DNA of 64,000 nucleotides from NCBI GenBank assembly GCA_963667285.1, contig OY763326.1, positions 3,055,546-3,119,545 of the forward strand, written 5' to 3'. Shown one piece after another: positions 116-52,702 of the stretch. The DNA is from Alphaproteobacteria bacterium (lineage in GTDB: Bacteria; Pseudomonadota; Alphaproteobacteria; MPNO01). The position numbers and the translations under genes are program-made. Position 1 is the stretch's first letter. The number at the start of each line of letters is the position of its first letter. The notes under the pieces are model-generated. The model saw nothing but the letters and a program-made list of their open reading frames with translations, was not told the DNA's origin and made no database searches.

Positions 116-631
116 ATGCGCACGCTCTATCTGCTGAGGCACGCCAAGTCGGACTGGGGCGATCCCGGGCTCGGCGATTTCGACCGGCCGCTGGCCGCGC
201 GCGGCAGGCGGGCCGCGCCGGCGGTGGCGGGGTGGATGCGGGACAACGGCTGCGCGCCCGGATACGTGCTGTGCTCCACCGCGCGGCGGGCGGCCGAGAC
301 CTGGGCGCTGGTCGCCGACGTGCTGGAGCGCGCGCCCGAGGTCGAGACCACCGGGGAGCTCTACCACGCCGCGCCGGCCGGGCTGTTCGCGCTCGCCCGG
401 GCGCTTCCGGACCGCCACGATTCGGCGATGATGGTCGGGCACAACCCCGGCTTCCACCTCCTCGCCTGCGCGCTGGCGGGCGAGGGGCCCGACGACCTGC
501 TGCGCCTTCTCGCCGCGGGCTACCCCACCGCCGCGCTGGCCGGCATCGCGTTCGACGCCGCAAGCTGGTCGGAGATCGCGCCCGGCGCCGGCCGCCTGAT
601 TTGCTTCGTCCGGCCCCGGGCGCTGGCGTAG
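116..631 (+). CDS. SixA-like phosphohistidine phosphatase (histidine phosphatase superfamily)
   Basis: The N-terminus LYLLRHAKS matches the RHG-type catalytic motif and the protein carries the GHNP block. The 172-aa length is typical of SixA. ATG at 116 lies inside the longer six-frame ORF 29..631. Confidence 0.75.
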   Translation: MRTLYLLRHAKSDWGDPGLGDFDRPLAARGRRAAPAVAGWMRDNGCAPGYVLCSTARRAAETWALVADVLERAPEVETTGELYHAAPAGLFALARALPDRHDSAMMVGHNPGFHLLACALAGEGPDDLLRLLAAGYPTAALAGIAFDAASWSEIAPGAGRLICFVRPRALA

Positions 632-983
632 AGTTCCCGCACGTCGTCAATTCGACCGGGGCGCGAAGCGCGTCCCCCAATGTCGTCATTTCGACCGGAG
701 CGCGAAGCGCGGAGTGGAGAAACCTCCCGGCCCCACGGGGACGAGGTTTCTCCCCTTCGACAAGCTCAGGGCAGGCTACTCCGCCGTGCTGCCGCACGGC
801 TCCGGTCGAAATGACGAGAGTGGGTCCGCCGTGCCGCGCACCGCTACGCCCCGGATCAAGTCCGGGGTCCGACGAAATGACAGAGTGGCGCGGGCGTGTC
901 GAGTGACGGGTATCGGACCGCCTTCGCCACCCCGGATTGCCGCCGCCGCCCCATGTCGTCATTTCGACCGGGGCGGCCCCCGG
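632..983. repeat. Array A of nested-palindrome MITE/REP-like elements (core gtcgtcatttcgaccgg ... ccggtcgaaatgacga; inner hairpin ggagaaacctc-N15-gaggtttctcc)
   Basis: Inverted repeats were read directly from the sequence. The first ~125 bp are near-identical to 2332..2455. Confidence 0.7.
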
Positions 984-1427
984 TCAGTACCCGAAGGCGT
1001 ACTGACCGCCAGGCAGCAGCGTGAAAGTGCCTTTCCGAAGGATATCGCGGCCGATGATGGCCTGATATCTGCTGAGGCCAGCCCCTTCGGGATTGAGGCC
1101 GGGCGCCAGCACCGGACCGGCCAGATCCCAGTTCTCCGATCCTATGAGATCCTCCGTGCTGTCGTGATCCAGCAGGAAAAAGAACTGCACCTGGTAGAGA
1201 GACACTTCCACGGCCGGGCCTGCGGTGTGCAGCGTTCTTTGACCGCGTGGCTCCAGCCGGAGATAGTCGACGACCGGCTTCAAGATGCAGGAACTCAGCG
1301 CCCCGGTGTCGAACAAGGCCGGGCACATGTGAGGAGCGTCGCTTTTCGGTGAGGTGCCTTCCGGCAGGATGCCGACCTCGCGGATCGGCCCCGCGTTCCA
1401 CTCAAAGCGGCCTGAGAGCACCGGCAT
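984..1427 (-). CDS. Retropepsin-like (clan AA) aspartic protease
   Basis: Carries the active-site motif ALFDTGAL and the retropepsin flap/dimer motif IIGRDIL, and ends ...GQYAFGY. ATG at 1427. Confidence 0.7.
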   Translation of the reverse strand: MPVLSGRFEWNAGPIREVGILPEGTSPKSDAPHMCPALFDTGALSSCILKPVVDYLRLEPRGQRTLHTAGPAVEVSLYQVQFFFLLDHDSTEDLIGSENWDLAGPVLAPGLNPEGAGLSRYQAIIGRDILRKGTFTLLPGGQYAFGY

Positions 1428-1680
1428 GAGACAGATATCCTAGATCGACGGCCTGATCGGTCACTTCCTGGATGGAGAACCGACCGTCCTCGTACAGATT
1501 GGAGCCCGCGACGAAAGCATCCCGGCTCGTGTCGAAGAAATCGACTATCCGTGCATCCCGCATGAGCGCAAACTTGTTTCGATGCTCTTTGAGCAGGTCC
1601 GGCAGGTGCTCGCGGAACGCACGGTAGTTCCGCTCGACCTCTTCCTGCTGAGCCGACCTTTCCGTTCGATCGTTGTCCAT
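1402..1680 (-). CDS. Hypothetical 92-aa protein; 3' end overlaps the protease gene by 26 nt
   Basis: ATG at 1680 sits 8 nt behind a GGAG. Stop TGA is at 1404..1402, inside the protease ORF in another frame. The six-frame ORF extends to 1734 but has no better start. No motif was recognised. Confidence 0.45.
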   Translation of the reverse strand: MDNDRTERSAQQEEVERNYRAFREHLPDLLKEHRNKFALMRDARIVDFFDTSRDAFVAGSNLYEDGRFSIQEVTDQAVDLGYLSHAGALRPL

Positions 1681-2010
1681 CGAGAGTCTCCGCTGCCCGT
1701 GCGGTAAGGTAATTCCGAAACGACCGGCTGTCATTTCTGGTACGGTTCGATGGGGCGGTTTTCCCGCGCTTGCCCACAGACGGCCGGGATGATTCTCCAG
1801 CCCCCATCAACGATTTCCGCCACTTGCAGCCGCATCGAGAAGATTTTTCTCAGCCGTGGGGAAGATGCGGAGGGCGGCGGATAGCCGCGGTCAGGACACA
1901 CCTTCGACCCGCTTGCACTCCAGTCAGAGGGACAGGTTCCCTTCGACAGGGGCTCACAAAGAAAGGTTGACCGGCGAGCGGCTGGTGCGGATCGGCAACC
2001 GGAACGTCGC

Positions 2011-2331
2011 GCCGCCGGGGTGCTGGAGGGCGGTCCGGAGGTCGAGACCACCGGAGATCTCTACCACGCCGCCCCGGCCGGGCTGTTCGCGCTCGCCCGG
2101 GCGCTCCCGGACCGGCACGATTCGGCGATGATGGTCGGGCACAACCCCGGCTTCCACCTCCTCGCCTGCGCGCTGGCGGGCGAGGGGCCCGACGACCTGC
2201 TGCGCCTTCTCGCCGCGGGCTACCCCACCGCCGCGCTGGCCGGGATCGCGTTCGACGCCGCGAGCTGGTCGGGCATCGCGCCCGGCACCGGCCGCCTGAT
2301 TTGCTTCGTCCGGCCCCGGGCGCTGGCGTAG
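2011..2331 (+). pseudogene. Partial duplicate of the sixA 3' end (no catalytic N-terminus)
   Basis: By eye it is ~95% identical to sixA positions ~320..631, with scattered substitutions. The translation (six-frame ORF 2020..2331) matches the SixA C-terminus ...GHNPGFHLLACALAGEGPDDLLRLLAAGYPTAALAGIAFDAASW... Confidence 0.75.
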
Positions 2332-2830
2332 AGTTCCCGCACGTCGTCCTTTCGACCGGGGCGCGAAGCGCGTCCCCCAATGTCGTCATTTCGACCGGAG
2401 CGCGAAGCGCGGAGTGGAGAAACCTCCCGGCCCCACGGGGACGAGGTTTCTCCACTCCGCCGTGCTCCGCACGGCTCCGGTCGAAATGACGAGGGGAGTG
2501 TGCGCCGTGCTGCGCACGGCTGCGCCCCGGATCAAGTTCGGGGTCCGTCGAAATGACAGAGGGGCGCGGGCGTGTCGAGGGACGGGTATCGGACCACCTT
2601 CGCCACCCCGGACTGCCGCCGCCCTCCCCACATCGTCATTTCGACCGGAGCGCCGGAGGCGCGCAGTGGAGAAACCTCCCTGCCAATGGGGACGAGGTTT
2701 CTCCACTCCGCCGTGCTGCGCACGGCTCCGGTCGAAATGACGATGGGGGCCGCCGTGTTGCGCGCGGCTGCGCCCCGGATCAGGTTCGGGGTCCGTCGAA
2801 ATGACGACATGGTGGGACAGCGCGGAGCGG
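2332..2830. repeat. Array B of the same MITE/REP-like palindromic elements (more units than array A)
   Basis: It repeats the gtcgtcatttcgaccgg / ggagaaacctc...gaggtttctcc / ccggtcgaaatgacga modules. The ccccggatca(a/g)gttcggggtcc hairpins occur three times. Confidence 0.7.
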
Positions 2831-2906: not shown

Positions 2907-4151
2907 ATGCACCCGGTGCAGCTCTTCCACTGGCATTTCATGGCCTATCCCTACCTGCCGGAGGATTTCGACGAGCGCTTCGACACCGGCTGGGTGACGG
3001 TGCCCAACCGCCTGTGGGACCGCGAGCGGACCGACGGGCTCTACCAGGAATATATCGACCAGCTCGCCGAGGCGGCCGGGCTCGGCTTCGACGGGCTGGT
3101 GCTCAACGAGCACCACCAGAACATCTACGGGCTGATGCCGTCGCCCAACATCATCGCGTCCGCGCTGACCCAGCGCACCGAGCGCGCCAAGCTGGTCGTG
3201 CTCGGCAACCTGCTGCCGCTCCACCTCAACCCGCTCCGCGTGGCCGAGGAATACGCGATGATCGATTCGATCTCGGGCGGGCGGCTGATCGCCGGCTTCG
3301 CCGTCGGCGGCGGGCCCGAGGCGTACAACTACAACATCCCATCGCCGCAATCGCGCCAGCGCTTCTGGGAGGCGGTCGACCTGATCCTGCGGACCTGGAC
3401 CGAGGACGGGCCGTTCGAGCACGAGGGGCCGTCCTACCCGCTGCGCTACGTCAATATCTGGCCCAAGCCGCGCCAGACGCCGCACCCCAGGGTGTGGATC
3501 CCGGGCAGCCTCAGCGCCGAGACCATGGACCACGTGGCCAGGCGCGGCTTCGACTACTTCCTGTCGTCGCGCACCCACGGGGCGGCGACCCGCCAGGCGC
3601 GCGAGCGCTTCGCCGACATCCTCGAGCGCCACGGCGACGCCTACCACCCGTTCCGCATGGGGGTGCTGCTGTCGGTCTATGTCGGCGAGACCGACGAGCA
3701 GGCGAAGGAGGAGGCGGAGGAGGGGGTCTGGTACTTCCTCAAATACTGCCTCAAGGGCCATCTCAGGCGCAGCGGGCGGACGCTCACCTTCGGCCCCGGC
3801 GTGCCGTCGCAATCGGTGCGCTCGTGGCGCGCCTTTCTGGAGAACTCGACCCCGGGCGCGCCGATGCTGGGCGACGCCGACGACTGGGAGGAGCTCGAAT
3901 CCAAGGCCTCGATCGTGGTCGGCAGCCCGGCCACGGTGCGCGAGAAGCTGTGGGCGCTGATCGAGCAGGCCGAGGTCGGCAACCTGCTGATCCAGTTCCA
4001 TTTCGGCAACATGGAGGATTCGCTGGCGCGGAAGAGCGCCCGCCTGTTCGCCGAGCAGGTGGCGCCCGATTTGCGCGCGCGCTCGGCCGAGCTGTTCGCC
4101 CGCAAGTACCCGGCGCTGGCCGACCGCCCGGCCGCGAGCGCGGCGGAATGA
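2907..4151 (+). CDS. LLM-class (luciferase-like) flavin-dependent oxidoreductase
   Basis: A 414-aa ORF with the typical TIM-barrel luciferase-like sequence profile throughout. Confidence 0.85.
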   Translation: MHPVQLFHWHFMAYPYLPEDFDERFDTGWVTVPNRLWDRERTDGLYQEYIDQLAEAAGLGFDGLVLNEHHQNIYGLMPSPNIIASALTQRTERAKLVVLGNLLPLHLNPLRVAEEYAMIDSISGGRLIAGFAVGGGPEAYNYNIPSPQSRQRFWEAVDLILRTWTEDGPFEHEGPSYPLRYVNIWPKPRQTPHPRVWIPGSLSAETMDHVARRGFDYFLSSRTHGAATRQARERFADILERHGDAYHPFRMGVLLSVYVGETDEQAKEEAEEGVWYFLKYCLKGHLRRSGRTLTFGPGVPSQSVRSWRAFLENSTPGAPMLGDADDWEELESKASIVVGSPATVREKLWALIEQAEVGNLLIQFHFGNMEDSLARKSARLFAEQVAPDLRARSAELFARKYPALADRPAASAAE

Positions 4152-52606: not shown

Positions 52607-52702
52607 TGGCGGAAAAGAGTGGGAGTCGAACCCACCAGGGACGTCTCACGCCCCTCACCGGTTTTGAAGACCGGGCGCGCCACCGGGCCGCGATTCTTTT
52701 CC
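52607..52702 (-). tRNA. selC: tRNA-Sec (selenocysteine tRNA, anticodon UCA)
   Basis: The reverse complement folds as tRNA-Sec. It has an 8-bp acceptor stem (GGAAAAGA/UCUUUUCC), discriminator G and CCA. The anticodon loop CUUCAAA gives anticodon UCA. There is a long variable arm and a 5-bp T stem with loop UUCGACU. Overall it closely resembles E. coli selC (GGUG, UUCAAA, GGUUCGACUCC blocks). Confidence 0.85.

Follow-up and report, generated by a model that had tools for sequence, protein, structure and literature searches.

Introduction

To our knowledge, roles have been assigned to only a handful of bacterial retropepsin-like aspartic proteases (APRc, PerP, SpoIIGA, RimB, and the Rlo enzymes), and these are either membrane-bound or secreted or else embedded in a pathway; PerP and SpoIIGA, for example, are membrane-associated. 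RimB is cytoplasmic and operon-embedded as part of the RimABK pathway, the RloA enzymes are secreted, and polyglutamate tails are the substrates of RimB and RloA, whose neighbors are RimK/RimA or RloB/RloC (PMC11957791, PMC12239564). Here we analyze a 64,000-nucleotide stretch of alphaproteobacterial DNA (contig OY763326.1, positions 3,055,546 to 3,119,545; hereafter the window) that encodes, near its beginning, a retropepsin-like protease and a 92-residue partner whose gene overlaps the protease gene. The protease of this two-gene cassette defines a different class, one that is minimal and soluble and is almost always found with one small DUF5678-like protein by way of a conserved overlap. 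What appears to be new here is a retropepsin-like protease in a toxin–antitoxin (TA)-like cassette, both halves of which are known only as generic families.

The best structural match of the protease model is APRc (RC1339) of Rickettsia conorii (PDB 5c9f/5c9b; Foldseek E = 5e-4, template-modeling (TM) score 0.55–0.61), which is likewise a single-lobe DTG protease with an expected dimer, but the two share only 9–13% sequence identity. APRc is membrane-embedded, autoprocessed, and exposed on the outer membrane, whereas the window protease has no transmembrane segment or signal peptide, and we know of no DUF5678 partner for APRc. RimB and RloA of Pseudomonas (PDB 9g59) are also small bacterial retropepsin-like enzymes with a DTGA motif, but the cassette has no RimK, RimA, RloB, or RloC neighbors and the window protease has no family match to them at the sequence level. 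A DUF5678 partner is likewise not known for PerP, SpoIIGA, RimB, or RloA. The family names TIGR03698 (clan_AA_DTGF), TIGR02281 (clan_AA_DTGA), PF13650, and PF13975 are generic clan AA names with no function or partner attached. For DUF5678 (PF18929) we know of no function, and the N-terminal helix and the D-L-G-F-F-S-H-A tail of the partner lie outside the 49-residue core of that family.

In the literature searched, we found no paper describing the protease–partner pair and no aspartic-protease toxin. The one mention of DUF5678 was in an unrelated plant paper, searches for TIGR03698, for PDC-M08, and for retropepsin together with toxin–antitoxin or defense island returned nothing, and Asp_protease_2 returned only papers on eukaryotic transposons. 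The plasmid, phage, PADLOC, PHROGs, and NCBIfam collections searched likewise hold no model or entry that describes the pair.

Results

The window protease and its family

The elements of the cassette itself are as follows.

984..1427, (−) strand: protease gene, retropepsin-like aspartic and soluble, with D40-T-G-A and G126-R-D; open reading frame (ORF) of 147 residues with an ATG start
1402..1680, (−) strand: partner gene, DUF5678-like core plus a conserved tail predicted to be disordered; ORF of 92 residues with its ATG at 1680
1688..1691, (−) strand: GGAG Shine-Dalgarno sequence of the partner gene, read from the sequence, 8 nt upstream of the ATG at 1680
1402..1427, (−) strand: out-of-frame overlap from the protease ATG to the partner TGA, 26 nt, with the protease in the +1 frame
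1423..1446, (−) strand: codons of the partner tail D-L-G-Y-L-S-H-A (residues 79–86), placed by alignment, with synonymous variation; predicted local distance difference test (pLDDT) below 50

The initial annotation had given the protease ORF with its motifs ALFDTGAL and IIGRDIL, the 92-residue ORF with its ATG and GGAG, the 26-nt overlap in a different frame, and the junction, which reads ggatatctgtctcATGccggtgctctcaggccgctttTGA, and all of these proved exact. ALFDTGAL corresponds to protease residues 37–44 with the predicted catalytic D40, so that the catalytic motif of clan AA (two hydrophobic residues followed by D-T/S-G-A) is present as A37-L-F-D40-T-G-A43. IIGRDIL corresponds to residues 124–130, and within it the second clan AA motif, hydrophobic-hydrophobic-G-R-D/N in the C-terminal helix, is present as I124-I-G-R-D128.

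Profile searches support the family of the protease and not the window protein taken singly. The window protease scores 20.4 bits (E = 8e-4) against Asp_protease_2 (PF13650), which is below the Pfam cut-off of 24.3, and it has no match at E ≤ 1 to NCBIfam TIGR03698 or TIGR02281. Its close homologues are few (a word-indexed search through 5.8 billion proteins gave five), but a family profile, built to include the proteases adjoining more distant partners, recovered 378 relatives, and nearly all of the best 120 of these 378 carry precomputed PF13650 or PF13975 matches, some of the same 120 being named "retropepsin-like aspartic protease" by NCBI. Weak matches to TIGR03698 were obtained for 64 of 82 protease relatives (best E = 7.6e-6) and to TIGR02281 for 40 of the 82 (best E = 2.1e-5). 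D40, G42, A43, and G126 are invariant in an alignment of 81 protease sequences, and among 107 full-length protease ORFs taken from loci, DTGA is found in 102 and GRD in 96. The family profile also aligns both motifs to those of HIV-1 protease (IIGRN/D) and Ddi1, and the N-terminus, M-P-x-[LF]-S-G-x-F, is conserved across the relatives.

No signal peptide or transmembrane segment was found in the window protease, as had been read by eye: the maximum Kyte-Doolittle mean over 19 residues is 1.18, and this peak is the active-site strand and not the N-terminus. The AlphaFold2 model of the protease has a pLDDT of 88.4 and a predicted TM score of 0.83. When it was compared with the PDB using Foldseek, nearly all of the top matches were retropepsin-type proteases or pepsin lobes, with probability about 1.0 and TM scores of 0.4–0.6. 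APRc (5c9f) ranked first, followed by the proteases of Rous sarcoma virus, human immunodeficiency virus, and feline immunodeficiency virus and by Ddi1, with Pseudomonas RloA2 at rank 18. The assignment of the window protease to the retropepsins rests on its family and on this predicted structure, and between them a retropepsin fold with an intact active site is well supported; the view of a free-standing retropepsin-like enzyme is thereby borne out. By analogy with the family, the protease should be enzymatically active, and active only as a homodimer.

The two genes are kept together across phyla

Two separate genes, one for the protease and one for the partner, are retained at about 150 loci, which represent at least 10 phyla. 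In a scan seeded with the protease, which used one genome per species and in which all loci are metagenome-assembled genomes (MAGs), the partner lies directly upstream on the same strand in about 70 of 80 loci. These loci come from Latescibacterota, Alphaproteobacteria, Thermoanaerobaculia, Binatia, Nitrospirota, Chloroflexota, and Methylomirabilota, as well as from delta- and gammaproteobacteria, Acidimicrobiia, Planctomycetota, and others. In the reciprocal scan of metagenomes seeded with the partner, the protease lies downstream in 74 of the 77 loci that had enough downstream sequence. The protease and partner families are linked strictly and reciprocally, and the survey thus answers in favor of conserved pairing.

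Every close homologue of the protease has a gene for 90–92 residues upstream with the identical 26-nt overlap, and these pairs sit in at least three unrelated contexts, namely Bac_luciferase/His_Phos_1 (as in the window), purK/DUF1194, and DjlA/ABC transporter. Partner homologues at 57–61% identity likewise have a protease gene downstream with a 26-nt overlap, and in one case the gene caller had overlooked it. Purifying selection acts on both genes: in unsaturated comparisons, dN/dS is 0.09–0.25 for the protease and 0.10–0.19 for the partner.

Departures from the pair are few. In 5 of 76 loci a truncated or split protease accompanies a full-length partner, the partner-seeded scan gave three loci with a solo partner, and there is one locus with a solo protease. 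The solo protease (L054, 3233–3655) is apparently intact and has no partner upstream. Among the solo partners, those at L124 (1134–1391) and L157 (2971–3270) have no protease downstream, and the latter has a degenerate tail and has lost the embedded ATG. At L018 (3445–4399), an insertion with a transposase-like ORF on the opposite strand took the place of the partner gene and the protease start, and the remaining protease frame (profile positions 14–147) is still open. Among the best 150 of the partner representatives found by an exhaustive profile search (numbered with a P), only P0278 is an in-frame partner–protease fusion, and its linker replaces both the D-L-G-F-F-S-H-A tail of the partner and the first 14 residues of the protease.

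Distant retropepsin-like genes in Clostridia and at other loci (L063, L068, L073, L074, L081, and L084) match the protease profile at E = 1e-17 to 1e-20 and are preceded by small ORFs with weak matches to the partner profile (E = 1e-3 to 1e-7). Several of these ORF pairs abut or do not overlap, and those at L068 and L073 overlap in stop-to-stop coordinates. Judged by these six loci, the pairing may extend well beyond the family studied here.

The partner protein

The 92-residue protein is tied to DUF5678 through its relatives. The window partner itself scores only 12.5 bits (E = 0.13) against PF18929, below the cut-off of 23.2, and no PDB relative was found by sequence or by fold, but 24 of 48 partner relatives match DUF5678 weakly (E ≤ 1), the best at E = 2.3e-5. 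The 48 relatives are those of the word-index search; the exhaustive profile search gave 1,815 representatives at 50% clustering (E ≤ 1e-3), nearly all of them 80–120 residues long. NCBIfam and PHROGs gave no partner match, and there was no match to helix-turn-helix (HTH), ribbon-helix-helix, or AbrB domains in Pfam or NCBIfam. The partner is acidic, with an isoelectric point (pI) of 5.1 against a family median of 5.25.

The partner model (pLDDT 70.9) consists of a long N-terminal helix (residues 3–32), a beta-hairpin (36–49), a second helix (52–62), and a strand (69–73), followed by residues 78–92, which include the conserved tail and which, when the partner is modeled alone, have a pLDDT below 50 and are predicted to be disordered. 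With that pLDDT, the model superposes tentatively on Pandoravirus "DUF5678 domain-containing" proteins in BFVD (E = 7e-3 and 1.9e-2; TM score 0.46–0.59), the fold matches there being S5WA56, A0A2U7UD66, and A0A8S5PWQ5, that is, Pandoravirus DUF5678 and uncharacterized tailed-phage proteins. Two variants of the domain arrangement were seen among the representatives: P0169, P0170, P0175, and P0214 carry tandem double partner domains within one protein, and in P0282, a rare variant, an XRE-type HTH is fused N-terminally to the partner domain.

The overlap and the conserved tail

The C-terminus of the partner has the consensus V-D-L-G-[FY]-[FYL]-S-[HY]-A, and the ATG of the protease is nested in the codons for its final His/Tyr and Ala (CAT/TAT GCN; CAT GCC in the window). 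The overlap is 14, 17, 20, 23, 26, or 32 nt long, in the same frame relation, in 73 of 76 measured pairs, and the protease starts at profile position 1 in all 76 (ATG in 73, GTG in 3). Partner residues 3′ of the protease ATG are variable, and the protease N-terminus encoded there is conserved. Over the 76 junctions, the codons of the tail motif vary synonymously, with all four Gly codons and both codons for each of Asp, Phe, and Tyr in use.

In L014 and L015, from two alphaproteobacterial MAGs (about 3710–4001), an insertion of about 75 nt parts the tail motif from the protease start. The partner there continues for about 25 residues beyond the tail, a spacer of 15 nt precedes the protease ATG, and the motif D-L-G-Y-F-S is kept without any overlap. 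Because the codons vary synonymously and because the motif survives in these two loci, the tail is selected at the protein level and is not merely a ribosome-binding region. A distant subfamily represented by L172 (5765–6426 of a 9.4-Mb contig) and L173, at 27% identity, also keeps the pair; here the overlap is 13 nt long and in the opposite (−1) frame, and the partner tail reads I-N-L-G-I-F-S-C-L-G.

No conserved RNA structure was found at the junction, and the window junction folds worse than 199 of 200 shuffled sequences (z = +2.3), which means that it is less structured. The GG of the Gly codon lies 13–14 nt upstream of the protease ATG, rather far for a Shine-Dalgarno sequence. We infer from this arrangement that translation of the protease probably depends largely on ribosomes that are translating the partner gene or terminating on it, by coupling or re-initiation.

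The cassette as a mobile unit

Two further features concern the extent of what moves.

967..1896, no strand: low-GC island holding the cassette, about 0.9 kb, 60% GC overall (56–66%) against 70–76% in the flanks; from the composition profile and the extent of the L001 match
1681..1769, (−) strand: upstream stretch that moves together with the cassette and holds a candidate promoter; the similarity to L004/L005 ends at 1769, conserved block

Loci L004 and L005, which lie in another genomic context, share with the window only positions 984–1769, at 86% nucleotide identity. This segment consists of the two genes and 89 nt upstream, and the similarity ends at the protease stop codon. Within the upstream part, ATGACA (1729–1734) and TACCTT (1706–1711), separated by a 17-nt spacer, make a plausible promoter on the ground of conservation between contexts alone; a scan with promoter and terminator consensus sequences called nothing on the coding strand.

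The 122 immediate neighbors at about 60 loci belong to 110 different Pfam families, and no third conserved gene was found among them. Besides an amidase, the recurring neighbor families are IS1595 and IS1 transposases (three each) and Polbeta nucleotidyltransferases (two). ParE/ParD, Gp49/HTH_37, or transposase genes adjoin the cassette in L004/L005, L171, L009, and L174; more broadly, some annotated contexts hold ParE/ParD, Gp49/HTH_37, IS1595, a DDE transposase, or AAA_14/DUF4143, and others hold plain housekeeping genes. Searches of 72,556 plasmids, 50,697 phages, and IMG/VR with two partner queries and with a profile gave no match to the cassette family. Taken together, the comparisons of sequence context indicate that the pair forms a two-gene cassette that is autonomous and moves horizontally. 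The proposal of a cognate overlapping partner in a mobilized two-gene module has thus stood up, given that the pair recurs in at least four unrelated contexts among close relatives and in many phyla and sits in a low-GC island.

Discussion

Toxin–antitoxin and defense systems

The cassette resembles type II TA systems in that a small upstream gene overlaps a co-directional enzyme gene, the cassette is autonomous, its distribution over phyla is patchy, its contexts with insertion sequence (IS) and TA genes vary, and decay is commoner in the enzyme gene than in the partner gene. It differs in that the partner is acidic and has no detected DNA-binding domain, an HTH fusion being found only in the rare P0282. 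A retropepsin-like protein is already component B of a candidate phage-defense system, PDC-M08, and 51 of 81 protease relatives match PDC-M08B (PADLOC PDLC04401–04405) weakly, at 14–26 bits with a best E of 1e-6 and mostly in the DTG region. The window protease matches no B model, and the partner matches no PDC-M08A model. Membership of a known defense or TA component was considered and set aside, since PADLOC otherwise gave only a chance-level match to DzbB (3 of 48 partners, E about 0.007).

Proposed restraint of the protease by its partner

The reading that we favor, with a probability of roughly 0.4, is that the partner binds and inhibits the protease in a TA-like or abortive-infection-like way. 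The partner would be the cognate binder of the protease and its tail the contact, which would fill the substrate cleft as a pseudo-substrate or else dock on the N-terminal strand at the dimer interface, leaving the enzyme inactive in either case. By virtue of the overlap, the partner would be made first and in excess and would never be in deficit relative to the protease. If the partner were lost or displaced, the protease would be freed to cut cellular or invader proteins, and the logic would be that of a TA or abortive-infection system with an aspartic protease as its effector.

Inhibition is favored because the architecture would make the partner first and in excess, because the cassette behaves as a selfish or mobile module, and because decay is asymmetric, the five split or truncated proteases and three solo partners standing against one solo protease. 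The existence of the HTH–partner fusion P0282 and the weak matches of the protease relatives to PDC-M08B point the same way. Retropepsins favor a hydrophobic or aromatic P1–P1′ pair, and the [FY]-[FYL] of the tail resembles such a pair; because it suits these positions, the tail could act as a pseudo-substrate or could itself be cleaved. We speculate that the tail and the first 14 protease residues touch each other in the two-protein form, as hinted by their joint loss in P0278, and, as a further speculation, that such a contact might be a beta-strand pairing at the dimer interface. A wider proposal is that the cassette is the founding example of a family of protease-effector TA or abortive-infection systems, in which a cytoplasmic retropepsin-like enzyme would be inhibited by the tail of a translationally coupled DUF5678 partner, the tail serving as pseudo-substrate or blocking the dimer interface; this is tentative, and we would put the odds against it.

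Several observations weigh against inhibition. The partner, with its pI of 5.1 and no detected DNA-binding domain, is unlike most type II antitoxins. Failure to find the family in the plasmids, phages, and IMG/VR sequences searched is unusual for addiction or defense modules, and the neighbors are mostly chromosomal housekeeping genes and not defense islands. There is a solo and apparently intact protease at L054, and one would not expect a toxin and its antitoxin to occur as a covalent fusion such as P0278. Because the split proteases are in MAGs, they could be assembly errors. Finally, covariation between the two proteins (94 non-redundant pairs, effective number of sequences about 76) was uninformative about an interface, the only strong signals, between partner residues 83–86 and protease residues 2–5, being trivial because those codons overlap.

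Other accounts of the pair

The pair could instead be a processing module in which the partner is a dedicated substrate, cleaved at the aromatic pair of its tail (G-[FY] / [FYL]-S) so that the matured or activated DUF5678 protein is the real effector. The likeness of the tail motif to the hydrophobic P1–P1′ pair of retropepsin sites fits this account, as do the strict and reciprocal linkage, the occurrence of tandem double-partner proteins, and the better conservation of the partner family (48 word-index homologues against 5 for the protease at similar thresholds). The cut, however, would take off only 3–10 poorly conserved residues after S-H-A, for no obvious gain in function, and solo partners keep or lose the tail without any protease, and so we consider processing unlikely.

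A second possibility is that the partner is an adaptor or activator required for folding, dimerization, or substrate delivery, with the pair carrying out housekeeping or stress proteolysis in analogy to the RimB/Rlo operons. The contexts are mostly housekeeping and chromosomal, plasmids and phages among those searched lack the family, the in-frame fusion P0278 is tolerated, and the known bacterial retropepsin-like enzymes serve physiological pathways (PMC11957791, PMC12239564), all of which such a role would accommodate. It sits less well with the lack of any third conserved gene or pathway context among the neighbors, with the patchy distribution across phyla, the low-GC island, and the IS and TA neighbors, and with the existence of partner-only and protease-decayed loci, and on balance we regard it as quite unlikely.

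The overlap also invites comparison with retroviral gag-pro, since retroviral and Ddi1 proteases have the same fold and motifs and the cassette, too, has a protease ORF whose 5′ end lies within a preceding ORF of a different frame. On this account, ribosomes would shift by +1 in the overlap in a programmed way and give a self-processing partner–protease fusion. The +1 frame relation holds in 73 of 76 pairs, the window partner ends in CTT TGA G, which is prfB-like, directly before the protease-frame TTT GAG, and the natural fusion P0278 shows that a fused form can exist. The cassette protease nevertheless has its own start, an ATG or GTG at profile position 1 in 76 of 76 genes, and no conserved slippery site or stimulatory structure was found, no conserved RNA structure being seen at the junction. 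The overlap length varies from 14 to 32 nt, as does the codon before the stop (CTT, GCT, GTT, or CTC), L014 and L015 have a 15-nt spacer in place of an overlap, and the L172/L173 subfamily uses the other frame with its 13-nt overlap. The cassette also encodes no polyprotein and has no retroelement genes in its vicinity. With the codon, overlap length, and frame all varying, the starts independent, and CTT-TGA not conserved, we rejected a programmed frameshift as very improbable.

The weakest account, raised in the initial annotation as an alternative, is a frameshifted pseudogene of an ancestral single fusion, which draws on the one in-frame fusion among 150 partner representatives and is refuted to the point of a negligible probability by the comparative data, because two genes are the norm in about 150 loci over many phyla, the protease has its own start in 76 of 76 pairs, both ORFs are under purifying selection, and the catalytic motifs and start codon are conserved.

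What the class would mean

The class is widespread in environmental bacteria, and the partner family comprises at least 1,800 representatives at 50% identity from many phyla, most of them uncultured. The model organisms, plasmids, and phages that were searched lack the class, which probably explains why it has gone unstudied. If the partner is an inhibitor, aspartic proteases would join the effectors of toxin and defense systems, and the tail would be a natural peptide inhibitor of a retropepsin. Should the TA-like reading be true, DUF5678 would receive its first function, and the family would still gain a first function if the partner turned out to be a substrate or a cofactor.

Repeats and other features around the island

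The island in the window is bracketed by a direct duplication, whose sixA-like component is a histidine-phosphatase gene.

313..975, (+) strand: left copy of a direct duplication of about 650 bp, with the 3′ part of the sixA-like gene and an array of miniature inverted-repeat transposable elements (MITE) or repetitive extragenic palindromes (REP) at 632–975; self-BLAST identity 90.7%
2013..2652, (+) strand: right copy of the duplication, with a sixA 3′ fragment and a MITE/REP array, further MITE units continuing to 2822; from self-BLAST and repeat families

MITE/REP-like arrays lie at 632–975 and 2332–2822. Their core, GTCATTTCGACCGG, occurs in 11 copies between 640 and 2810 at up to two mismatches, 6 of them exact, and exact copies are found nowhere else in the 64 kb; over the whole window there are 16 matches against 0.8 expected by chance. 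In one MITE unit (2627–2749), for instance, an internal GGAGAAACCTCCC hairpin lies between 25-nt terminal inverted repeats (GTCGTCATTTCGACCGGAGC).

The pair had been described as captured between MITE arrays, and the flanking arrays and the sixA duplication are indeed present. In the relative L001, the island, 92% identical over its length, occupies the same sixA/luciferase site without these MITEs and without the duplication, and on that ground MITE capture is not supported as the mechanism of mobilization and the arrays are incidental. The arrays and the 650-bp duplication are specific to the lineage of the window.

Units related to the MITE/REP elements lie downstream of the cassette in L004/L005. 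Elsewhere in the window, the sole Rfam family above threshold is a selenocysteine tRNA gene at 52611–52702 on the (−) strand (tRNA-Sec, 76.7 bits).

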